NCBI GenBank assembly: GCA_020852295.1
Contig: JADZBC010000009.1
Location: forward strand, 104,628-168,627
Reading direction: 5' to 3'
Length of the DNA: 64,000 bases
Source of the DNA: a bacterium
GTDB lineage: Bacteria > Patescibacteriota > Saccharimonadia > CAILAD01 > JADZBC01
Shown: one piece after another, positions 7,542 to 56,400 of the stretch
Layout of the letters: each line of letters starts with the position of its first letter
Position numbering within the stretch: position 1 is the first letter of the stretch
Position numbers and translations under genes: made by a program
The notes under the pieces: generated by a model
The model's input: only the letters and a program-made list of their open reading frames with translations
Told to the model about the DNA's origin: nothing
The model's database searches: none

Positions 7542-8168
7542 TTAATACTTTCGGATGAGGCCAATCACGACGCCCTGTATCTTCAGGGGCGTGCCGGGCT
7601 CTACATAGATAGGCTCCATTGAGGAGTTGGCGGGTTGCAAACGAATGCGACGAGCCTCCTTGTAGTAGCGTTTGAGTGTAGCTTCTGAGTTATTGACGAG
7701 CGCAACAACGACTTCACCGTTACTCGGTACTTCCTTCTCTTGCACGACCACATAGTCACCGTCGTGGATGCCGTCTTCGATCATGCTCTCACCCTTTACC
7801 TGCAATACATAGCTATGCTTGCGGCCAACCATAAATGGTGGTACTTCGAGTGTTTCGGTGTGTCCTTCGGTCGTTTCAATTGGTCGACCTGCAGCGATCA
7901 GTCCAAGAATTGGCAAAGCTACGCCATCGCCTTGAGTGATAGCCGCTTCCACTTCTTCGACGGGGAGGAGAGAGCGAGCGGAGTTATTGCCCTTGGTGAG
8001 TAAGCCTTTACCGACCAAAGCCTCGATGTGCTGCGCCACGGTGGCGACCGAGCTAAGCTTTAAGCCATTGGCGATCTCGCGGTAGCTTGGTGAATACCCG
8101 CGTTGCTCAATAAAGCTCGTGACGTAGTCTAGAGTACGACGCTGTTTTTTGGTCAAGGCACTTTTCAT
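7542..8168 (-). CDS. lexA: LexA repressor (SOS regulator, S24 peptidase)
   Basis: N-terminal wHTH (YSPSYREIANGLKLSSVATVAQHIEALVGKGLL). AG cleavage site (LIAAGRP). Ser/Lys peptidase motif (VKGESMIEDGIHDGDYVVV). Confidence 0.85.
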   Translation of the reverse strand: MKSALTKKQRRTLDYVTSFIEQRGYSPSYREIANGLKLSSVATVAQHIEALVGKGLLTKGNNSARSLLPVEEVEAAITQGDGVALPILGLIAAGRPIETTEGHTETLEVPPFMVGRKHSYVLQVKGESMIEDGIHDGDYVVVQEKEVPSNGEVVVALVNNSEATLKRYYKEARRIRLQPANSSMEPIYVEPGTPLKIQGVVIGLIRKY

Positions 8169-8619: not shown

Positions 8620-9762
8620 ATGAAAAAACTAATTTTAGCTATGCAAGTTGGGCTCGTCGCGCTTGTGTTGGCGGTCATGACATTTGGCGTGGCTCACGCG
8701 GCCGAGACGCAGAAGCTTGTGACACTCGGCAAAGATGAAGTCTTCGACGGCTTTTTTGTACGAGCCGGCTCCATAATTAAAGTTAACGGTACAGTCAATG
8801 GTGATGTCTTTTTGGCTGGGCAGGACATCACTCTGGCGGGGCGTATCAATGGAAATGTTTACGCCGCAGCCCAGACGATTACGATCAAGGGCGAGGTGAC
8901 CGGTAGCGTACATCTGGCCGCCGCTCGAGTGGATGTCTCAGCTCCAGTCGATGGCACCGGCCTGGTGGCTGCTTCTGACCTTGAGGTTGCCAAAGAGGGG
9001 AGCTTTGGCCGCGGTTTGGTCAGCGGTGTGTCCACCGCCGACATTGCCGGAAAAGTCGGTGGGCCAATGTATCTCGGTGCATCGACGGTCAATCTCGAAA
9101 ACGAGGTAACTGGCTCTGCCACGATCGGCGCCGAGCAGATTGTAGTCTCGGGTGACGGCAAGTTTGGTAATGACCTTAAGTACTACTCTGACACCAAAGA
9201 TCAGGTTGCCAAAGAAAAAGTCGCTGGTCAGCTTACCTATGTGAAGCCACAAGCTGAGACGAGGACAAACGCAGCCACTGTACTGGCCTCGGTCATCTAT
9301 GGTCTTCTTGCGAGCCTTGTGCTTGGACTCACGCTGCTTTACCTGGCACCACGTAGTACTGCAGCAGTAGCTGACTACATCCAGCGCAAACCGTTTGTGG
9401 CGGTTGCATCTGGATTTGGTTTTGTCATCCTTGTACCGCTGGCGGTGATCTTTACCTTTGTAACTGTTATCGGTATTCCGCTAGCAGTGGTTGTGGGCTT
9501 ACTCTATGGCGTAACGCTCTTTGTCGGTGAGCTCTTTGTGGCGCTCTGGGTAGGACGTACACTGCTCAAGACGACCGACTCCAAGGTAGGCGCGAATGCG
9601 CTCGCACTCCTCGCCGGACTCGTTGTATTGGCAGCTCTCAAGCTGATACCGGTGGGTGGAGTATTTGTGGCACTGCTGGCATTCTTTGCCGGAGTGGGTG
9701 CTCTCGTGGCGCGCTCGATCGAGCGTATCAGTGCAGTACACCGCTCTCAGAGTCGAGCGTAA
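8620..9762 (+). CDS. bactofilin-like beta-helical repeat protein with C-terminal polytopic membrane domain
   Basis: Signal/TM at the N-terminus. Repeated V-x-G-x-V/INGNV/VTGSV motifs typical of polymer-forming bactofilin (DUF583) beta-helix. Four or more C-terminal TM helices. Confidence 0.5.
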   Translation: MKKLILAMQVGLVALVLAVMTFGVAHAAETQKLVTLGKDEVFDGFFVRAGSIIKVNGTVNGDVFLAGQDITLAGRINGNVYAAAQTITIKGEVTGSVHLAAARVDVSAPVDGTGLVAASDLEVAKEGSFGRGLVSGVSTADIAGKVGGPMYLGASTVNLENEVTGSATIGAEQIVVSGDGKFGNDLKYYSDTKDQVAKEKVAGQLTYVKPQAETRTNAATVLASVIYGLLASLVLGLTLLYLAPRSTAAVADYIQRKPFVAVASGFGFVILVPLAVIFTFVTVIGIPLAVVVGLLYGVTLFVGELFVALWVGRTLLKTTDSKVGANALALLAGLVVLAALKLIPVGGVFVALLAFFAGVGALVARSIERISAVHRSQSRA

Positions 9763-10502: not shown

Positions 10503-10578
10503 GGGCCTGTAGCTCAGTGGTTAGAGCAGGCGGCTCATAACCGCTTGGTCGTTGGTTCGATCCCAACCAGGCCCACCA
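10503..10578 (+). tRNA. tRNA with CAT anticodon, most similar to tRNA-Ile2 (lysidine, k2CAU)
   Basis: 76-nt cloverleaf with anticodon loop cuCAUaa. Acceptor C4-G69/C5-G68. Anticodon arm is near-identical to E. coli ileX. Confidence 0.75.
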
Positions 10579-11182: not shown

Positions 11183-12049
11183 ATGAAAGTACGAAAAGCA
11201 ATTATCCCGGCAGCCGGTCTTGGTACCCGCTTCCTCCCGATGACTAAGGCGATGCCAAAAGAGATGTTGCCGATCATCGATAAGCCAGTTATTCAGTATG
11301 TCGTAGAGGAGGCGGTCGCGGCCGGCATCACCGACATTATTATTGTTACTGGGCAGCACAAGCGACCGGTCGAGGATCACTTCGACCACCAGTATGAGCT
11401 TGAGGCAAGCTTACGCGAAAAAGGTAAAGATGAGGTGGCTGACGAGCTAGCCCGCATCGCCGATATGGCCAATTTTATTTATGTTCGTCAAAAGGGCCAT
11501 TATGGTAACGGTACGCCGATCCTCAATGCGGCCCATCTAATTGGCGATGAGCCATTTCTCGTACTTTGGGCCGATGACTTTGTGCGTTCTACCGTGCCGC
11601 GCGCCAAGCAGCTGGTTGATGCCTATGAGCAGCTTCAGGCGCCCGTTATCTCACTCATCCCGATCAAGCCGTCTGATGCGAGCAAGTACGGCGTGCCAGC
11701 GATTCGCAGCAAGCGCGAGGCTGACCTTTTTGAGATCGAAAAACTCGTCGAGAAGCCAGGCGTTGATGAAGCGCCAAGTAAGTTTGGGTCGGTTGGTGGC
11801 TACATCCTCACGCCCGACATAATTCCACTACTAGAGGCACAGCATCCCGACAAGACCGGTGAAGTCTATCTGAGTACCGCGATTGACCAATTGGCCGCTA
11901 AGCGTCCGGTTTTTGGAAAGGTTATCGAAGGCACTTGGCATGATACTGGCAGTAAGACGACTTACCTGCAGGCCATTGTTGACGTTGCGCTCGAAGACAA
12001 GAAGATTGGGCCAGCCTTTCGCAAATATCTCGAAAATAAACTTAAATAA
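11183..12049 (+). CDS. galU: UTP--glucose-1-phosphate uridylyltransferase
   Basis: KAIIPAAGLGTRFLPMTKAMPKEMLPIIDKPVIQYVVEEA is the GalU signature. Confidence 0.85.
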   Translation: MKVRKAIIPAAGLGTRFLPMTKAMPKEMLPIIDKPVIQYVVEEAVAAGITDIIIVTGQHKRPVEDHFDHQYELEASLREKGKDEVADELARIADMANFIYVRQKGHYGNGTPILNAAHLIGDEPFLVLWADDFVRSTVPRAKQLVDAYEQLQAPVISLIPIKPSDASKYGVPAIRSKREADLFEIEKLVEKPGVDEAPSKFGSVGGYILTPDIIPLLEAQHPDKTGEVYLSTAIDQLAAKRPVFGKVIEGTWHDTGSKTTYLQAIVDVALEDKKIGPAFRKYLENKLK

Positions 12050-12150
12050 TTAGCACAAAGGGAAGCGGCTCGGTTGAGCCCCGCGAGTACGTCGTTGTAC
12101 CGCAGGACTCTTCCGAGCCGCGTGTGCCCATTCGGGCGGTTCCCCAGAGA

Positions 12151-13188
12151 TCAGGCCTCGTCGGCCTGTTGCCGGCGCGGCTTGCGCGCCAGCAGGATGG
12201 ACGATCCCGCCGCAAAGAGCAGCAGGCCGCCCGCCACCAGCCACGGCGTGTAGCTGTTGGGGCCGGTGCAGGCGAGCCCACGGGGTGGGCAGTCGCTGCT
12301 CGGCCTGTTGCCGGCTGAGCTGGGGGTGGTCGTGGTCACCGCCGGGGCGGTGGTCGACGTCGTGCTCGTGCTGGTCGTCGTGGTGACGATGTCGCTCGTG
12401 CACTTGCCGTCCAGTCCTGGCGTGATCGCCCCCGAAAGGGTGATCGTGCGTCCGTCCTCGGCTTGCGCCACCAGCTGGTAGCTCGTCACCGTGGTGGCGC
12501 CGGGCAGCTGGTAGTTGTGGGCTTCAGCCGTACCCTCGCGGAGGGAGAGTCCGGCAAGGCCGGGAAAGGTCGGTGAACTCGTCACCGTCCAGTTCACGTC
12601 GCCGTTGTTGGACGCCTCCACCCGGAGGGAGTACACACCGACCGTCTCGCACTTGGCGTAGGCCTGGGTCGAACCCAGCAGCTCCGTCGGTGGCTTGACG
12701 GTCGTGGTGGTCGTCTTCATGGTGGTGGTCGTGACCGGTGGCTTGCAGCCGGTGGCCTCGTAGACGGCTTCGCGGCTGTCGCCGCCATCGCCGTCCGTCC
12801 ACTCCATGTCGAAGAAGATCAACCCTTGGCCGACTGAAGTCTTGGCGAGCTTGAGGCTCGCGGACGCGGTCTGGCCGGGCTTGACCTCGCCGAGGTTCGC
12901 GTACACCGAGGTGTCGCGATCAACGGCCGAGACGTACATCGACCGATGGTCGTTGTTGGTGAAGGAGACCTTCACCACGACCGACTGACTGCCCTCGGGG
13001 CAGCTGGCCGACGCGCTGGTTTCCACCGTCCACGCGCCAGCCACTTGGGCCGTCGCGATGGTGAACAGGCAGCCGATGAGGGCCGCCACGAGAATACGCA
13101 ATTGGCGCATTTGAAAACTCAACTTTCTCTGGGGATGTGGGGAACACCGTGGTGCGGCCAGCCGAAGCGGCGCAAACACGGAAGGCAT
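12151..13188 (-). CDS. secreted, Thr-rich cell-wall-anchored surface protein with LAxTG-type sorting signal (high-GC, foreign)
   Basis: Signal peptide. Thr-rich linkers. C-terminal LACTG + hydrophobic stretch + RKPRRQQ tail. Local GC about 68% by eye, against about 50% background. Confidence 0.7.
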   Translation of the reverse strand: MPSVFAPLRLAAPRCSPHPQRKLSFQMRQLRILVAALIGCLFTIATAQVAGAWTVETSASASCPEGSQSVVVKVSFTNNDHRSMYVSAVDRDTSVYANLGEVKPGQTASASLKLAKTSVGQGLIFFDMEWTDGDGGDSREAVYEATGCKPPVTTTTMKTTTTTVKPPTELLGSTQAYAKCETVGVYSLRVEASNNGDVNWTVTSSPTFPGLAGLSLREGTAEAHNYQLPGATTVTSYQLVAQAEDGRTITLSGAITPGLDGKCTSDIVTTTTSTSTTSTTAPAVTTTTPSSAGNRPSSDCPPRGLACTGPNSYTPWLVAGGLLLFAAGSSILLARKPRRQQADEA

Positions 13189-13302
13189 AAGATACCATAA
13201 AATACAAAAAAAGTCAATATATTTCGCATCTAATGCTTAAGCTTGATCTGGAGGGGGAATTATTGTACTATAGCAATCCCGTTCCCAACCTGTGAGGTTA
13301 TC

Positions 13303-13848
13303 ATGAAGCTTTACCAGCAATGGTGCCGATTGCGCACCCGCCTGAAGCTGGGTCGCCGCCATGGCTTCCCGCCCGGACTCCAGAATGTGTCCACATCTCA
13401 GCCCGGCGAGTCGTTTCGCGCCCGCCCCAACTTCTACTGGTATCGAGCGATCGGATGGCCGAGCTACATGCCGGTCTATCCTCAGCCAGCGCTCGTTCGT
13501 GGTACCGCCATCACCGAAGGGTGGCCGTGCGAGTTTCGCAGCACGCGCTGGCGCGCCCGTTGGGCCGGCCCGTACTGTGTTGACTGCGACGACCCAGCAG
13601 GTGATTGGGTGCTCGTAGTCGGCCAGGTGCATGGTGAGTTGGTGCGCAACGAGCACAAGCTGGCGGATGGCACACATGAGTCGTCCGACATCTGGAACCG
13701 CATCAAGGCTCCAATCGAGAAGCTTCGGCCCGGTATTGATCCGGCCACGCTCAGGATCGATGCGACGGGCATGTTCGTCTACGGCTACGTGCCGGACCTC
13801 TGGTTCGGCAACACCGGCTGGCACGACATCCCAGACGAGGAAGGGTGA
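13303..13848 (+). CDS. hypothetical Trp/Arg-rich protein on the high-GC island
   Basis: Very high third-position GC in this frame, about 80% counted by hand. ATG at 13303 chosen over the upstream in-frame start; start uncertain. Confidence 0.45.
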   Translation: MKLYQQWCRLRTRLKLGRRHGFPPGLQNVSTSQPGESFRARPNFYWYRAIGWPSYMPVYPQPALVRGTAITEGWPCEFRSTRWRARWAGPYCVDCDDPAGDWVLVVGQVHGELVRNEHKLADGTHESSDIWNRIKAPIEKLRPGIDPATLRIDATGMFVYGYVPDLWFGNTGWHDIPDEEG

Positions 13849-13852
13849 ATCG

Positions 13853-13886
13853 CCCCGACAGGCTCCGCTTGTCGGGGTTTGTCGTT
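13853..13886 (+). terminator. hairpin ccccgac...gtcgggg + T-rich tail
   Basis: 7-bp GC stem immediately after the TGA of the island gene. Confidence 0.5.
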
Positions 13887-13932
13887 ATTGATGATTGCAC
13901 AATTTTCTCGGTAGTCGTAGGATAGATATGGT

Positions 13933-18158: not shown

Positions 18159-18234
18159 CGCGGGGTAGAGCAATTGGCAGCTCGTCGGGCTCATAACCCG
18201 GAGGTTGCAGGTTCGAGTCCTGCCCCCGCCACCA
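18159..18234 (+). tRNA. initiator tRNA-fMet (CAT)
   Basis: C1-C72 mismatch. Three G-C pairs closing the anticodon stem (tcGGGcuCAUaaCCCgg). Near-identical to E. coli metZ. Confidence 0.9.
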
Positions 18235-20344: not shown

Positions 20345-20421
20345 GGCTGCGTAGCTCAGTTGGTTAGAGCGCGGGACTCATAAGCCTGAGGTCGGAGGTT
20401 CAATTCCTCCCGCAGCCACCA
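20345..20421 (+). tRNA. elongator tRNA-Met (CAT)
   Basis: 77-nt cloverleaf. Acceptor and D-arm ggctgcgtagctcagttggttagagc resemble E. coli metT. Anticodon loop cuCAUaa. Confidence 0.8.
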
Positions 20422-35363: not shown

Positions 35364-35398
35364 TCGCTAAGCATAAGGACTGATGATATACTAGCGGT

Positions 35399-36936: not shown

Positions 36937-37542
36937 TTGTTTATGAAAAAGCTCAATGTCCTGCTGATCGACAACGACACTCATTACAAGCAAAAGCTTC
37001 GCAATTTGTTGGCCGCTCATGATCTCACGGTTATTGATTACACCCAAATCGGCGAGATTGAGCAGACTGACTATGATGTCATCGTACTCTCGGGCGGAGG
37101 TATTAAGACCGAGGATGGCCGCCGCCGTTCCCTCAAACGTTTCTCGCATCTGTATGAAGATCAGATCAAGCTTGTCAAAGAAGCTAAAGTACCAATTGTT
37201 GGTATCTGCCTTGGCTGTCAGATTATCGGTCATGCTTATGGCGCAAAGCTTTCGCGTCAGTTCAAGATCCGCCGCAAGGGCCTGAGCGATATTGTTACCA
37301 TTCGCCACAGTGCGGTCATGGGTGATCTGCAAGAAGCAACAGTATTCCAGTCAAACCGCTGGATTATTACCGACCTACCAGATGATCTTATTTGTATCGC
37401 TGCTTCTGACGAAGGGGCAGAGGTGATTCGTCACCGTAGCAAGCCGCTCTATGGCGTGCAATTCCACCCCGAGCGTCGGGTTGGCAAAAACGACGGCGCC
37501 AAGATTTTTAATAACATCCTCAAAGTTATTTTTTCGAAGTAG
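36937..37542 (+). CDS. class-I glutamine amidotransferase / peptidase C26-like protein
   Basis: Nucleophile elbow GICLGCQ. C-terminal GVQFHPE. Confidence 0.7.
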   Translation: MFMKKLNVLLIDNDTHYKQKLRNLLAAHDLTVIDYTQIGEIEQTDYDVIVLSGGGIKTEDGRRRSLKRFSHLYEDQIKLVKEAKVPIVGICLGCQIIGHAYGAKLSRQFKIRRKGLSDIVTIRHSAVMGDLQEATVFQSNRWIITDLPDDLICIAASDEGAEVIRHRSKPLYGVQFHPERRVGKNDGAKIFNNILKVIFSK

Positions 37543-38236
37543 CTTTTTTCTTGGGTCGCTCGGTGGCGTAGAAGTTTTCGAAAATCACCTCGCCAATGTG
37601 GCGCGAAAACGGCATGCGACCGCGCTCGTGTCGACCAAGCCAGTTGCTTGGGAGGTGACGGGTAATGTGCTGGGTGATGATTGTTTTGGCGGTACGCTTA
37701 CTGATCTCCGGATGAAACTGTACGCCGTAGATATTGAGTAACTTATGCTCATAGGCCTCTATCTTGCAGCGCGCCGAGCTCGCGGTGATGATGAAGCCTT
37801 TCGGCAGACTCACGACGTCATCGTGATGGTGTTCAAACGCATAGAAGTTGTGTGGCAACCCGGCCAGCAGACGGCTCTCGCCATGACGGGTCATGCGAAA
37901 CCAGCCAGTTTCGGGGTTGACGTAGCTTTCAATGGCATCGCTACCCTCAAGGGCGGCCGCAATCATTTGGTGGCCAAAGCAAACCCCGAGGATCGGTATC
38001 TCTTCGCGGACTGCTTGGCGAATCAGCTTTTGCAAGTGGGGTAGGGTTGGGTCGTCCATCGAGACACGCCCGCCACCACCGGTGAGTACGACGTGACTAT
38101 AGTCATCGAGTTTTTTGGGTAGATCGTCATGAGCACGTACGGCGACGTCGTATTTGGCGCGGACGTCTTCGCGAAATACCGAGCACTTGTTGCAGAACTT
38201 CTGGAGGTGATTATCGATGATCAGTATATTGCGCAT
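37526..38236 (-). CDS. class-I glutamine amidotransferase / peptidase C26-like protein (second copy, convergent)
   Basis: GVCFGHQ and GVQFHPE catalytic motifs. Confidence 0.7.
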   Translation of the reverse strand: MRNILIIDNHLQKFCNKCSVFREDVRAKYDVAVRAHDDLPKKLDDYSHVVLTGGGGRVSMDDPTLPHLQKLIRQAVREEIPILGVCFGHQMIAAALEGSDAIESYVNPETGWFRMTRHGESRLLAGLPHNFYAFEHHHDDVVSLPKGFIITASSARCKIEAYEHKLLNIYGVQFHPEISKRTAKTIITQHITRHLPSNWLGRHERGRMPFSRHIGEVIFENFYATERPKKKATSKK

Positions 38237-38404
38237 TGTTTTATTGTATCAAAGCACAAGCACTTCAGAATACTTGCCAAATTATAACTTTTATGCTATA
38301 ATTTGCCACTGACGTCCCAGGTGTAATAACCTGGGCGCGTTCATCTACATCCACCACCACTTCAAGACCTCCTGAAGAAGGAGGCATGCCAAGGAAGTAT
38401 CACC

Positions 38405-38959
38405 ATGACCGAATTGCGCGATTACTTCGCGTACGGCTCCAACAACGACGCGCAGATGCTGGAGCGCCTCGGTCGACTGCCGTCCAAGGCGGTTGGCTTC
38501 GCCGAGCTGCATGGCTTTCGACCCGCCTTCATGGGTCGGAGCGTCAAGCGGTTCTGTGCCACGCTCACCGCCGTTCACACCGGCGACTTCGCCGATCGCG
38601 TGTTCGGCACGCTGTACCTCGACCTGACGGAAGAGGAGTTCGCCATCCTCGACCGCAAGGAAGGGGTGAAGTACGACGATCAGGGCAAGCCGACGGGCCG
38701 CTACATGCGGATCAGCCGACCGGTGACGATCAACGAAGGCGAGACCGCCGATCGTCAGGCTGAGCTCTACGTGATGACCGGCAACCTGCAGGTCGATCGC
38801 GAGGAGCGTGCGCCCAGCACGGACTACCTCTACAACGTCCTACAGGCCGCCTTCACGGCGGGCATGCCCGACTGGTACATCAAGAAGTACCTCATGGTGC
38901 CCACCGAGAACGTCGTGCGCCACGAGCGCATGCCGATCGACGACTGGCAGCCCGCCTGA
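38405..38959 (+). CDS. gamma-glutamylcyclotransferase (AIG2/GGCT-like), high-GC foreign gene
   Basis: N-terminal YFAYGSN motif. GC about 65% by eye with strong GC3 bias. Confidence 0.65.
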   Translation: MTELRDYFAYGSNNDAQMLERLGRLPSKAVGFAELHGFRPAFMGRSVKRFCATLTAVHTGDFADRVFGTLYLDLTEEEFAILDRKEGVKYDDQGKPTGRYMRISRPVTINEGETADRQAELYVMTGNLQVDREERAPSTDYLYNVLQAAFTAGMPDWYIKKYLMVPTENVVRHERMPIDDWQPA

Positions 38960-38967
38960 TCTTCGGG

Positions 38968-39012
38968 ATGGTGGTGGAAGTACGGGTGGGGCTTCGGCCC
39001 CACCCACCACCT
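38968..39012 (+). terminator. long GC hairpin (ggtggtgg..gggtggggc-ttcg-gccccaccc..ccaccacc)
   Basis: Perfect 9-bp core stem extended by ggtggtgg/ccaccacc, right after the GGCT stop. No clear T-tract. Confidence 0.45.
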
Positions 39013-39082
39013 CTATACTTTGCCGACAGATTGACTATTTTACTATTTTGAGCTTAAATATATGAGTTCATTGCCCCGTTGA

Positions 39083-39184
39083 GGCCCTTAGCTCAGTTGG
39101 TTGTCTCGCTTTGCGAGCTTCAAAATATGTGCTCGGACATTAACAGATTAAATACTTCGCTCCACGAACATTAATTTAATTCGT
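39083..39184 (+). other. tRNA-like 5' fragment (first about 20 nt identical to tRNA-Lys 5' end) followed by hairpin-rich spacer
   Basis: ggcccttagctcagttggtt is identical to the start of the adjacent tRNA-Lys, then diverges. No anticodon or T arm. Confidence 0.4.
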
Positions 39185-39261
39185 GGGCCCTTAGCTCAGT
39201 TGGTTAGAGCACCTGCCTTTTAAGCAGGGTGTCGTGGGTTCGAGCCCCACAGGGCCCTCCA
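39185..39261 (+). tRNA. tRNA-Lys (TTT)
   Basis: Cloverleaf with anticodon loop cuUUUaa. T-arm gtgggttcgagccccac. CCA encoded. Confidence 0.9.
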
Positions 39262-39265
39262 TTTT

Positions 39266-39290
39266 TTATAAAGACCTCATGGTCTTTTTT
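39266..39290 (+). terminator. rho-independent terminator after tRNA-Lys (agacc-tcat-ggtct + T7)
   Basis: Hairpin plus T-run. Confidence 0.7.
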
Positions 39291-39360
39291 TGTTGTCTAT
39301 TGACGGCCTATTACTAATGTATTATTGTTAGGCCAACTATAAGCATAATGAAAATAAAAA

Positions 39361-39981
39361 ATGCCTGCCAAAAAACAAAAAAGCTTCGTACCTTCAATAA
39401 AATCAGTTAAATCACCTTCAAAGCGCCGCATAATTGTTGGACTATTATTAATTGCCGTCCTCGGCGGTGTAGCATTAGTATTGCGAAGTCTTGCCGCCGG
39501 ACCATATACGCTTGTTCGAACTATGGGCAGGTCGGCGGGTTTCAGCTATAACGACGGGATATATATGGGAGTTAATGCTGGATCTCCGCCGACATGTTCT
39601 AGAACCTCAGTATATGATGATCGCTGGAAGTTTAATGTGGCAGTACTTGGGTGCCAGCAGCGCGGCAACTACGCAGATCATGTATGGGCACACGCAAGGT
39701 GGGATAACCCTGGAGCAGGAAATTGGAAATTGTGCGCATGGGTAATTGGTGTCTCAAAGGGGCTGCTGTTCGAGGTTTTTCTCGGTTCGAAGGAAGGTGG
39801 AACAAAAATACTTAATGAAAGGATTCCTATCTTCAATAACTCTCAATATCAGTACCTATGTACGCAGAATAGTATATGGGCTGATTATGGTAAAACCTAC
39901 GGCGCTCAGATAGCTGTATATCCCTATGCTGATTCGGGGACCATAGTTCGTGTGGCATCAATCAATCTCGTTCGACAGTAG
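39361..39981 (+). CDS. hypothetical membrane-anchored secreted protein
   Basis: Basic N-terminus with a single TM. Cys-containing extracellular domain. No recognised domain. Confidence 0.45.
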   Translation: MPAKKQKSFVPSIKSVKSPSKRRIIVGLLLIAVLGGVALVLRSLAAGPYTLVRTMGRSAGFSYNDGIYMGVNAGSPPTCSRTSVYDDRWKFNVAVLGCQQRGNYADHVWAHARWDNPGAGNWKLCAWVIGVSKGLLFEVFLGSKEGGTKILNERIPIFNNSQYQYLCTQNSIWADYGKTYGAQIAVYPYADSGTIVRVASINLVRQ

Positions 39982-55500: not shown

Positions 55501-55575
55501 TTGGAGCGGGTAGCGGGAATCAAACCCGCATCGCCTGCTTGGAAGGCAGGAATAATAATCTTTATACCATACCCG
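55501..55575 (-). tRNA. tRNA-Gly (TCC)
   Basis: 75 nt. Anticodon loop cuUCCaa at standard positions. GC-rich T-arm. A/U-rich D-arm without G18G19. Confidence 0.8.
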
Positions 55576-55678
55576 CATGGTTTTGTAGGTACTATTATAA
55601 ACCATTGAAAATACTACCATATTATTATATAATCAGCAAATCGCTATACACTCGACAACCCCCGGAAGGGAGCACGCG

Positions 55679-56341
55679 ATGGCGAAGAACCGTGACAAGA
55701 AGAAGGGCAGCAAGAAGCCCCAGATGAAGGCCGCCACGCCGGTCAAGTCGGGCAAGAAGAAGCCAGGGAAGGGCAAGCACGCCCACAAGAAGGTTGCTGC
55801 GATCATCGACTCGCACGACCAGAGCAAGATGGTGGTGGCTCGAGATGAGCTCAACGTTGCGATCGCGGCGTTGTCGCTCAGCAAGCCGCTGGCGGTGCTG
55901 GGTCTGAAGCCGCGCATCATGGCCATCTTCTCGAAGCTGGGTGTGGAGACGATCGGTCAGCTACTCGCCTTCCCGGACGAGACCTGGCGCCATCGCGGCA
56001 TCGGCTACGTGTCGCTGCGCGAGATCGATCGGGCATTGCGCCCGTTGGGCCTCGAGCTTGATCATCAGCCGGCGTCCGGCTACCACCTCACCACATCGAG
56101 ACTTACGCTCGAAGACCTCAGTGTCGTCGTTCCGCGAGTGGTTCGGGGTGGTGACAGTTCCGTGATCTGCTGCATCGAGCTGCAGAAGCGGTTCGGCGTG
56201 GTGACGGTCGCCGATCTGCTGGCGCTCGATGATCAGACCATCAGAGCCAGCCTGCCAGACAACGAGGAGTTGCCCATCTTCATGGAGGCAGTCGGTGAGC
56301 TGAGGGAGGCTCAGCGCCGCCTCGAAGCGTCGGCGGACTGA
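55679..56341 (+). CDS. high-GC foreign gene: Lys-rich N-terminal tail + two RpoA-alphaCTD-like helix-hairpin-helix modules
   Basis: GC about 65% by eye. LGLKPRIMAIFSKLGVETIGQLL and IELQKRFGVVTVADLL resemble alpha-CTD HhH motifs. Confidence 0.45.
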   Translation: MAKNRDKKKGSKKPQMKAATPVKSGKKKPGKGKHAHKKVAAIIDSHDQSKMVVARDELNVAIAALSLSKPLAVLGLKPRIMAIFSKLGVETIGQLLAFPDETWRHRGIGYVSLREIDRALRPLGLELDHQPASGYHLTTSRLTLEDLSVVVPRVVRGGDSSVICCIELQKRFGVVTVADLLALDDQTIRASLPDNEELPIFMEAVGELREAQRRLEASAD

Positions 56342-56362
56342 CCAGCTCACAGTCACGGTCGA

Positions 56363-56400
56363 AGGCAGGGTGGGTGTTCAACGAAGAACACTCACCCTGC
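56363..56400. terminator. bidirectional terminator hairpin between convergent genes
   Basis: 15-bp stem ggcagggtgggtgtt/aacactcaccctgcc. Followed by T-run on +. Confidence 0.6.

Follow-up and report, generated by a model that had tools for sequence, protein, structure and literature searches.

Hypervariable alleles between conserved flanks, moved by homologous exchange, are familiar from the staphylococcal agr specificity groups and the pneumococcal pherotype and capsule loci. Genomic islands and prophages at tRNA genes show a partial tRNA direct repeat by the intact gene and variable gene content around it; integrases that target tRNA genes reportedly normally duplicate the tRNA 3' end. The gamma-glutamylcyclotransferase (GGCT) family is represented by human GGCT/C7orf24 (PDB 2I5T, 2PN7, 2RBH, and 3CRY; Pfam AIG2_2/GGACT). 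For pairing between the two untranslated regions (UTRs) of one mRNA, the icaR mRNA of Staphylococcus aureus, in which 5'UTR-3'UTR pairing controls translation and RNase III decay (PMC3868564), is the nearest described case. The present analysis concerns a GGCT gene lying upstream of a tRNA-Lys gene in a stretch of 64,000 nucleotides (nt) of contig JADZBC010000009.1 from a bacterium of the Saccharimonadia, called the window below.

The locus shares features with each of these systems. It resembles the agr, pherotype and capsule-type loci in its divergent alleles on a near-identical background, sharp boundaries, and co-occurrence of alleles in the same communities, but the product is a single metabolic-type enzyme rather than a signalling or surface component, and all alleles have a strong excess of G+C at third codon positions (GC3). 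The partial tRNA repeat by an intact gene and the variable gene content recall tRNA-gene islands, whereas here the repeat runs from the 5' end to the D-loop, the interval is 102 nt, no integrase is seen, and GGCT lies outside the interval. The protein resembles human GGCT in profile match, YGSN motif, and catalytic Glu; unlike it, the window subfamily is clade-restricted, has a C-terminal extension of about 25 amino acids (aa), consists of members only 35-53% identical to each other, and shows extreme GC3 and strain-to-strain allele replacement. As in icaR, the 3'UTR is complementary to the 5'UTR of the same mRNA over about 20 bp or more, but for GGCT the pairing is predicted only, the Shine-Dalgarno sequence is left uncovered, and the 3' arm lies directly after the stop codon, adjoining a terminal hairpin that is an alternative partner. 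A literature search returned nothing on GGCT in Saccharibacteria. The gene is probably a long-resident, monocistronic gene upstream of tRNA-Lys in a small-genome clade, its coding part swapped between strains and its CCACCACC elements pairing the mRNA ends.

The GGCT gene and the exchange of its coding sequence

The gene under study is the following:
38405-38959, plus strand: GGCT-family (AIG2_2) gene, allele A, 184 aa, GC3 0.87 (Pfam match and GC3 count)

The encoded protein starts with MTELRDYFAYGSNN and carries the motif DYFAYGSNN. It matched Pfam PF13772 (AIG2_2) with an E-value of 1.9e-10 and 41.5 bits (cut-off 27), and relatives also matched PF06094 (GGACT). The human GGCT structures 2I5T/2PN7 matched the family profile with an E-value of 3.7e-24 over residues 18-162. 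An earlier note on this DNA had assigned the gene to the GGCT/AIG2 family by a YFAYGSN motif, and both the Pfam and the human GGCT matches bear this out. Human E98 ('DEQEGV') aligned with E86 ('DRKEGV'), which was invariant in 11 sequences and in all alleles; allele B has AIGSN where allele A has AYGSN. Profile and motif matching thus showed the window gene to be a GGCT family member with the catalytic Glu kept in all alleles. The exact protein sequence was not on record in a look-up, and PADLOC and NCBIfam gave no defence system and no named family for GGCT, X168, or p206. Judging from the families, the gene product presumably takes part in gamma-glutamyl turnover, alongside the RimK ligase and C26-like amidotransferases encoded at the locus. 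The predicted enzyme would release 5-oxoproline from gamma-glutamyl conjugates made or processed by the neighbouring ligase and hydrolases.

The order of the locus is DnaJ, X, RimK, GATase, GATase (minus strand), and GGCT, followed by tRNA-Lys. The RimK-family ligase, the two class-I glutamine amidotransferases (GATases, peptidase C26-like), and GGCT form a conserved cluster with GGCT as last member, and ComEC and YebC come next downstream in the window, L001, and L086. The annotated neighbours at 34.4-44.4 kb are DnaJ, RimK, the two GATases, GGCT, tRNA-Lys, ComEC, and YebC, and the other open reading frames (ORFs) there had no family match. No integrase or recombinase was matched among the ORFs of this interval or in the contigs of relatives.

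When 1.84 billion representative proteins were scanned in full with HMMER, only seven homologue clusters reached E<1e-10 (a word-indexed search recovered two). Six of the seven, on contigs that show neighbours, share the synteny of the window; the seventh, P0008, is a 770-nt contig without neighbours. The slot is occupied by the GGCT family in the window clade, L002, L086, L090, L098, L115, and L191. The slot proteins of these relatives are 41-77% identical (77% for the window/L002 pair) and otherwise 35-53% in pairwise comparison. tRNA-Lys follows GGCT wherever the downstream flank was recovered (L001, L002, L086, L090, L095, and L115). The clade contigs come from sludge, freshwater, and soil. 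No empty GGCT site was found among the relatives recovered with the slot. Distant or rearranged relatives from a RimK-profile metagenome scan hold other genes in it: ABC-transporter-like genes in L113 and L117, together with a 255-aa ORF in L117 that faintly resembles the C-terminus of GGCT, and, before tRNA-Lys in L116, a 302-aa ORF unrelated to GGCT. Scanning genome contigs with the adjacent GATase as query gave only homologues 24-38% identical from unrelated phyla, and no syntenic relatives. The same slot and neighbours in deeply diverged relatives indicate that GGCT has been at this locus through deep divergence and was not inserted.

Strains that are otherwise near-identical differ by replacement of the coding sequence and nothing around it. 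Allele B (207 aa, 41% identical to allele A, GC3 0.92) replaces allele A from start codon to stop codon. It was found on contigs L094-L097 and L101 (four assemblies and one Logan read-run assembly); allele A (184 aa) is carried by the window, L001, L100, L102, L103, and L107. Proteins of L094/L095 and the window are 97% (RimK), 100% (GAT1), 96% (GAT2), and 99% (X) identical, and GGCT 41%. DNA identity between A and B strains is 88-98% through the GATase gene, the promoter, and the 5'UTR, falls to 47-55% from start to stop codon, and is near-identity again from the first base 3' of the stop codon. The conserved UTR pair around the alleles is TATGCTATAATYTGCMACTGA ... GGGTGGGGCTTCGGCCCCACCC. The UTRs of A and B are the same to the base, which points to exchange by homologous recombination. 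The alleles would move with crossovers in the conserved UTRs and flanks, and natural transformation is a possible uptake route (a ComEC gene lies 1.6 kb downstream). Both alleles occur in sibling assemblies of the same studies (ERZ926121/ERZ926127; ERZ27296353/ERZ27296357/ERZ27296359). The shared UTRs suggest a long-standing polymorphism rather than illegitimate insertion.

Other variation was found in the same region. A HopA1-family gene (423 aa, PF17914, E 3.5e-14; L101 1043-2314 and L102 169-1440), which the window lacks, is inserted between DnaJ and protein X, 3 kb upstream, corresponding to window position ~35364-35398. Since it occurs with either GGCT allele, the region appears to be shuffled by recombination. 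Allele A is a pseudogene in L099 (7349-8262), where 20 bp are duplicated in tandem (CTTTCGACCCGCCTTCATGG) and a CAG codon has become TAG; GGCT is thus dispensable in at least some strains.

The secreted or membrane-anchored 206-aa protein encoded just downstream of tRNA-Lys (window 39361-39981) is hypervariable between near-identical strains as well (compared with L095 1927-2544). Its first ~50 residues are near-identical by BLASTP, DNA identity falls to 38-54% over the remainder, and overall protein identity is 49%. At 0.40, GC3 of the gene is lower than anywhere else in the window, and its product has no Pfam match. tRNA-Lys therefore stands between two hypervariable genes of opposite compositional skew, GGCT and the 206-aa protein gene.

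GC3 excess and predicted structure of the transcript

The GC content of the window GGCT gene is 0.61-0.64, against ~0.49 in the flanks and 0.50 on average in the window. Its GC3 of 0.87 compares with a mean of 0.54 (standard deviation 0.08) in the 59 other window ORFs, which makes the high-GC gene of the earlier note a strong compositional outlier; GC1 (0.63) and GC2 (0.41) are ordinary. GC3 in the lineages compared was as follows:
Window: GGCT 0.87, neighbours 0.40-0.64
L002: GGCT 0.83, neighbours 0.39-0.52
L086: GGCT 0.84, neighbours 0.35-0.51
L094/L095: GGCT 0.92, neighbours 0.38-0.67
L090 (first copy): GGCT 0.70, neighbours 0.39-0.53
L115: GGCT 0.47, neighbours 0.30-0.38
L098: GGCT 0.46, neighbours 0.30

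GGCT GC3 was above that of the neighbours in every lineage that could be compared, six in number. Tandem GGCT pairs occur in L090 (5001-6063) and L191 (5001-6088); GC3 is high in the first copy (0.70 in L090, 0.63 in L191) and ordinary in the second (0.38 in L090, 0.47 in L191), and identity between the L090 copies is 40%.

Persistence of the excess was judged from the window and L002. The proportion of synonymous differences (pS) in their flanking genes is 0.74-0.85, at or near saturation, and for GGCT it is 0.44, with 0.66 identical codons against 0.56 expected at saturation (z 2.6). The same codon-excess z is 0.2-3.0 in the flanks (RimK 2.8, YebC 3.0). Recent transfer between window and L002, as an explanation of the lower GGCT pS, was rejected, because strong codon bias accounts for the value. 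The GGCT genes of window and L002 both have GC3 of at least 0.83 after synonymous turnover; the bias is therefore not that of unameliorated foreign DNA, and some force acts now. On this codon evidence, the GC3 excess is maintained in place and is not a foreign relic.

Candidates for the ongoing force that would keep GC3 high are selection favouring a compact and structured mRNA, and repair biased towards GC at a hot spot of recombination. ORF folding was compared with synonymous-codon shuffles that keep protein and codon usage. The z-scores were -3.8 for allele A, -3.1 for allele B, -2.5 for L002, -3.6 for L115, -1.6 for the first L090 copy, -0.8 for the second, and -0.06 for L086; eight ordinary control genes gave -1.1 to +1.7. 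Selection for compact mRNA is thus a candidate reason for the GC3 excess, as far as predicted folds can tell. Expression-linked codon bias is an unlikely cause, as GC3 >0.66 is found in the window only in GGCT and three other ORFs of high-GC islands.

GC-rich patches of the window at 12000-13900 and 55650-56400 contain no ORF with a significant Pfam match. They include ORF 12151-13188 (minus strand; GC 0.67, GC3 0.85), ORF 13243-13848 (GC3 0.74), and ORF 55679-56341 (GC3 0.82), which adjoins tRNA-Gly at 55502-55576. No allele replacement was found at the 55679 gene in 10 same-species contigs.

Elements were also found around the coding sequence, at both ends of the transcript:
38274-38309, both strands: overlapping divergent sigma-70-like promoters, putative in function (promoter scan and inverted repeat)
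38311-38341, plus strand: 5'-proximal stem-loop of the GGCT transcript, GACGUCCCAGGU...ACCUGGG.CGCGU (minimum free energy (MFE) and centroid folds of window, L095, and L002)
38346-38359 (UACAUCCACCACCA, holding the left CCACCACC) and 38370-38378 (UCCUGAAGA), plus strand: predicted 5'UTR duplex arms with a 10-nt bulge between them
38960-38982, plus strand: 3'UTR duplex arm UCUUCGGGAUGGUGGUGGAAGUA, right after the stop codon, predicted to pair with both 5'UTR arms
38984-39005, plus strand: 3' terminal GC hairpin GGGUGGGGC-UUCG-GCCCCACCC, followed by ACCACC at 39006-39011 (holding the right CCACCACC; inverted repeats)

The plus-strand promoter (TTGCCA-17-TATAAT, extended TG) would serve GGCT, and the minus-strand promoter (GTGGCA-17-TATAAT) the GATase gene at 37526-38236. 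They form a 12-nt inverted repeat, TGCCAAATTATA/TATAATTTGCCA, whose sequence is kept in L001, L002, and L095. L086 has a different 5' hairpin at the stem-loop site. The 3' hairpin reads GGGTGGGGC-TTCG-GCCCCACCC as DNA (38984-39005), and its core is kept in L002 and L095. As a Rho-independent terminator it was not called by the terminator scan; the 9-bp GC hairpin is followed by ACCACCUCUAUACUUUG, without a U-tract.

The CCACCACC copies of the locus lie at 38351-38358 (plus), 38970-38977 (as GGTGGTGG), and 39004-39011 (plus). The earlier note had taken the left and right copies for att-like repeats and proposed their alignment. The direct relation turned out weak, with a perfect match over 8 nt or an 80% match over 15 nt, and the inverted relation is the stronger one, 38346-38359 and 38969-38982 being complementary at 13/14 positions. 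The word is found 14 times in the window against 1.3 expected, a ten-fold excess. Ten of the 14 copies are on the minus strand, and so read GGTGGTGG on the mostly coding plus strand.

The 5'UTR CCACCACC copy pairs with GGUGGUGG of the 3'UTR in a predicted 22-bp duplex, whose helices join 38346-38359 with 38969-38982 and 38370-38378 with 38960-38968. The duplex was evaluated with the 5'UTR on one side and, on the other, a 27-nt segment that starts at the stop codon and stops just short of the hairpin, whose core was excluded as a confounder. Its predicted free energy (dG) was -32.8 in the window, compared with -19.0±2.8 for shuffles (0/1000), and -32.7 in L002 (6/1000 and 2/1000 shuffles). Letters and registers differ in L002, where AUCUC..CCACC.CAUC..GACCCG faces CGGGUC.GAUG.GGUGG..GAGAU. 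Its left copy is CAACCACCC and its right copy CCGCCACC; they are not kept as direct repeats, and the complementarity with the 3'UTR is kept. Loss of the letters with retention of complementarity fits RNA pairing and not att sites. The CCACCACC copies are probably mRNA end-pairing elements.

Folding of the whole transcript (38303-39020) against dinucleotide shuffles gave z-scores of -8.5 for the window, -6.4 for allele B, -5.8 for L002, and -2.65 for L086. A helix closing the 5'UTR on the 3'UTR was present in the MFE and centroid structures of all four transcripts. The GGUGGU of the 3'UTR can alternatively pair with ACCACC at 39006-39011, lengthening the terminal hairpin, and the likely Shine-Dalgarno sequence AAGGAAG (38391-38397) is unpaired in the MFE structure. 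The 5'-3' UTR duplex, between the 5' stem-loop and the 3' GC hairpin, would close the transcript and control its stability or translation.

The tRNA-Lys leader

Downstream of the GGCT transcript, the tRNA-Lys region contains the following features:
39031-39059, plus strand: putative tRNA-Lys upstream promoter TTGACT-17-TTAAAT (read by eye, not called by the scan; identical in L095, kept in L002)
39083-39102, plus strand: tRNA-Lys 5' mimic, equal to tRNA positions 2-21 (exact 20-nt repeat)
39105-39117, plus strand: 5-bp hairpin CUCGC-UUU-GCGAG after the mimic (module kept in L090/L092/L093)
39083-39184, plus strand: 102-nt insertion relative to L095, made up of the fragment and an 82 or 83 nt spacer (alignments)
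39185-39261, plus strand: intact tRNA-Lys(UUU) with encoded CCA (ARAGORN; Rfam 72.3 bits)
39270-39287, plus strand: intrinsic terminator and T-run after tRNA-Lys (terminator scan)

The 20-nt copy lies 103 nt ahead of the same bases in the intact tRNA gene, and 0.01 such copies are expected by chance. Neither ARAGORN nor Rfam reported a tRNA at the fragment; Rfam hits at E≤10 over 38200-39400 comprised only the tRNA. L095 reads ...GCCCCGTT-GTG-GGCCCTTAGC... with an intact tRNA and represents a precise empty site, and the window reads ...GCCCCGTT-GA-GGCCCTTAGCTCAGTTGGTT, 80 nt, GTG-GGCCCTTAGC... The native upstream context GCCCCGTTG, shared by L002, precedes the fragment rather than the intact tRNA gene. 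The 102-nt insert is present in all same-species allele-A contigs that cover the site and in no allele-B contig, L002, or L086; the fragment is thus absent from L095, L002, and L086, all of which carry GGCT. GGCT itself is outside the repeat-bounded interval, upstream of both copies. The fragment described in the earlier note is part of an insertion of 102 nt that only certain strains carry and that lies between direct repeats of 20 nt, but this interval does not enclose GGCT. By these alignments the tRNA 5' fragment is a feature separate from GGCT, an indel polymorphism of the tRNA-Lys leader.

The same junction was found ~93 nt upstream of tRNA-Lys in L090, L092, and L093, whose RimK is 63% identical to that of the window. 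It reads GAGCCCGTAACTTGAGGTGGTT|GTCTCGC-GCCA-GCGAGC in L090 and GAGGCCCTTAGCTCAGTTGGTT|GTCTCGC-TTT-GCGAGC in the window. The L090 fragment carries the variants of L090's own tRNA (CCCG, GGTGG), and the remaining spacer is unalignable. The shared junction and the lineage-matched tRNA letters indicate an old origin of the ~45-nt module of mimic and hairpin, and concerted evolution between the module and the tRNA. The earlier note had named conservation of the fragment within a longer structured RNA of relatives as refuting evidence. This was seen in part, the fragment being kept with its adjacent hairpin in the distant relative L090. The tRNA leader fold is unremarkable (z -0.83). The module may have a function in the leader and have been lost repeatedly through recombination between the repeats; alternatively, it may be a conserved terminus left by a small D-loop insertion.

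The best-surviving rival explanation takes the fragment not as a functional leader but as the scar of D-loop recombination, involving a small element with its own tRNA 5' end or a truncated tandem tRNA-Lys duplicate. It is given slightly less than even credence. The insertion with its 20-nt direct repeats and precise empty site in near-identical L095, the native context GCCCCGTTG in front of the fragment, and the ordinary leader fold are all consistent with a scar, as is L115, in which a 179-aa ORF lies between two complete tRNA-Lys genes, one of them decaying. However, the same junction (GGTT|GTCTCGC..GCGAGC) recurs in L090, at 63% RimK identity, and the L090-specific tRNA letters together with 20/20 identity in the window point to concerted evolution or constraint rather than decay. 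The insert is also far below the size of an autonomous element, and its spacer has no homologue elsewhere. Searching the fetched loci by blastn gave only same-species copies of the spacer, and viral contigs gave none; scans of viral contigs with the 83-nt spacer, with its junction to the tRNA, and with the junction of fragment and hairpin returned nothing, or chance matches in GC-rich phage genes.

The two tRNA-Lys(UUU) genes of L115 lie at 8000-8076 and 8893-8969, share ~75 nt upstream of each, and flank the 179-aa ORF; the decaying copy has acceptor-stem mismatches (GAGCCC...). Elsewhere in the window, three tRNA-Met(CAT) genes are found within 10 kb (10503-10578, 18159-18234, and 20345-20421).

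Allele import and integration as rival explanations, and significance

Several points weigh against a resident gene with exchanged alleles and pairing mRNA ends. Both the duplex between the UTRs and the fold of the mRNA are predicted. Covariation comes from two alignable lineages, the window and L002, and L086 has only an unrelated 8-bp 5'-3' pair, CCCACUGA/UCAGUGGG, which is not significant. The L086 ORF shows no excess structure (z -0.06) despite its GC3 of 0.84, so selection for structure cannot wholly explain GC3; the main alternative is that a recombination hot spot brings GC-biased repair. The GC-rich window ORF 12151-13188 is over-structured as well (z -3.1), and excess structure may be a general property of GC-rich genes here. 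Finally, alleles might be imported repeatedly from a high-GC relative, which is unlikely on balance, and L116 shows that such genomes exist.

That last explanation is one of xenologous replacement. The GC3-rich alleles (A, B, and P0003 among others) would have been recently imported from GC-rich members of the clade, and their GC3 would be a donor signature renewed by import. L116 is a genome with GC 0.58 and the same RimK-GATase-GATase cluster, alleles A and B replace each other between near-identical strains, and L086 and L098 have GAT2 81% identical but GGCT only 47% identical, with GC3 of 0.84 and 0.46. All of this agrees with import. Alleles A and B, however, share host-type UTRs up to the start and stop codons, and a donor with other flanks would have to break at the ORF ends twice. 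Divergence between the alleles of window and L002 is about that of the flanking genes, with GC3 of at least 0.83 in both. L116 itself has no GGCT in the slot, and the contigs of the recovered clusters contained no GGCT of the family in a uniformly GC-rich context. Import as the source of the GC3 excess is accordingly rated as having little probability. The RimK of L116 is 65% identical, and GC3 in the DnaJ, DnaK, RimK, and GATase genes of this genome (GC 0.58) is 0.75-0.85.

The weakest explanation, that GGCT is a foreign cassette integrated site-specifically at tRNA-Lys with CCACCACC and the tRNA fragment as decayed att sites, would account for the high ORF GC, the 8-nt direct repeat on both sides, the exact 20-nt tRNA fragment, and the variable tRNA-Lys neighbourhood in relatives, but it is highly improbable: the slot is filled by the same gene family in all relatives found, down to 39% identity, no integrase is seen among the neighbours, the gene is outside the tRNA-repeat interval, the fragment is missing from GGCT-bearing strains, the left repeat is lost in L002 with the 3'UTR complementarity kept, CCACCACC is ten times commoner in the window than expected, GC3 has stayed high through near-saturating divergence, and what is duplicated is the tRNA's 5' rather than 3' end. 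This was the interpretation of the earlier note. The sequence features on which it was built (high-GC gene, CCACCACC repeats, hairpin, and tRNA fragment) were all present where it had placed them. Its foreign cassette holds insofar as the coding sequence is exchanged between strains, but the same slot in all relatives found and the GC3 kept through near-saturation do not agree with foreign origin. The att-like repeats are contradicted by L002, where complementarity and not the repeat is kept, and by the excess of the word in the window. Decayed tRNA-targeted integration fails on the resident slot, the neighbours without integrase, and the strains with GGCT and without the fragment. The proposed search for an empty site in relatives found none for GGCT and one, in L095, for the 102-nt insert alone.

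A resident gene with exchanged alleles is therefore retained as the preferred reading. It may tentatively be extended: the GGCT slot could be a diversifying allelic cassette with ORF-for-ORF exchange between pairing UTRs and GC3 held by a gene-specific force, and the tRNA-Lys mimic and hairpin a functional, concertedly evolving leader module. This combination as a whole is doubtful.

An unusual GC content beside a tRNA gene is routinely taken to mark an island gained by horizontal transfer. GGCT shows the same signature in a gene that is resident across its clade and has kept its GC3 after synonymous turnover, so composition-based island calls can be wrong for such genes. The locus provides a clean natural example of ORF-precise allele replacement between near-identical genomes of uncultivated small-genome bacteria. 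It also offers a candidate for 5'-3' UTR pairing in a bacterial mRNA, as predicted by folding, and shows that a tRNA leader can hold a conserved mimic of the tRNA's 5' end. If the slot is indeed an allelic cassette, it would represent a compositional regime that mimics horizontal transfer yet is maintained in place. If GC3 is driven by biased repair or by selection on mRNA structure, GGCT would be a convenient gene for separating the two forces.

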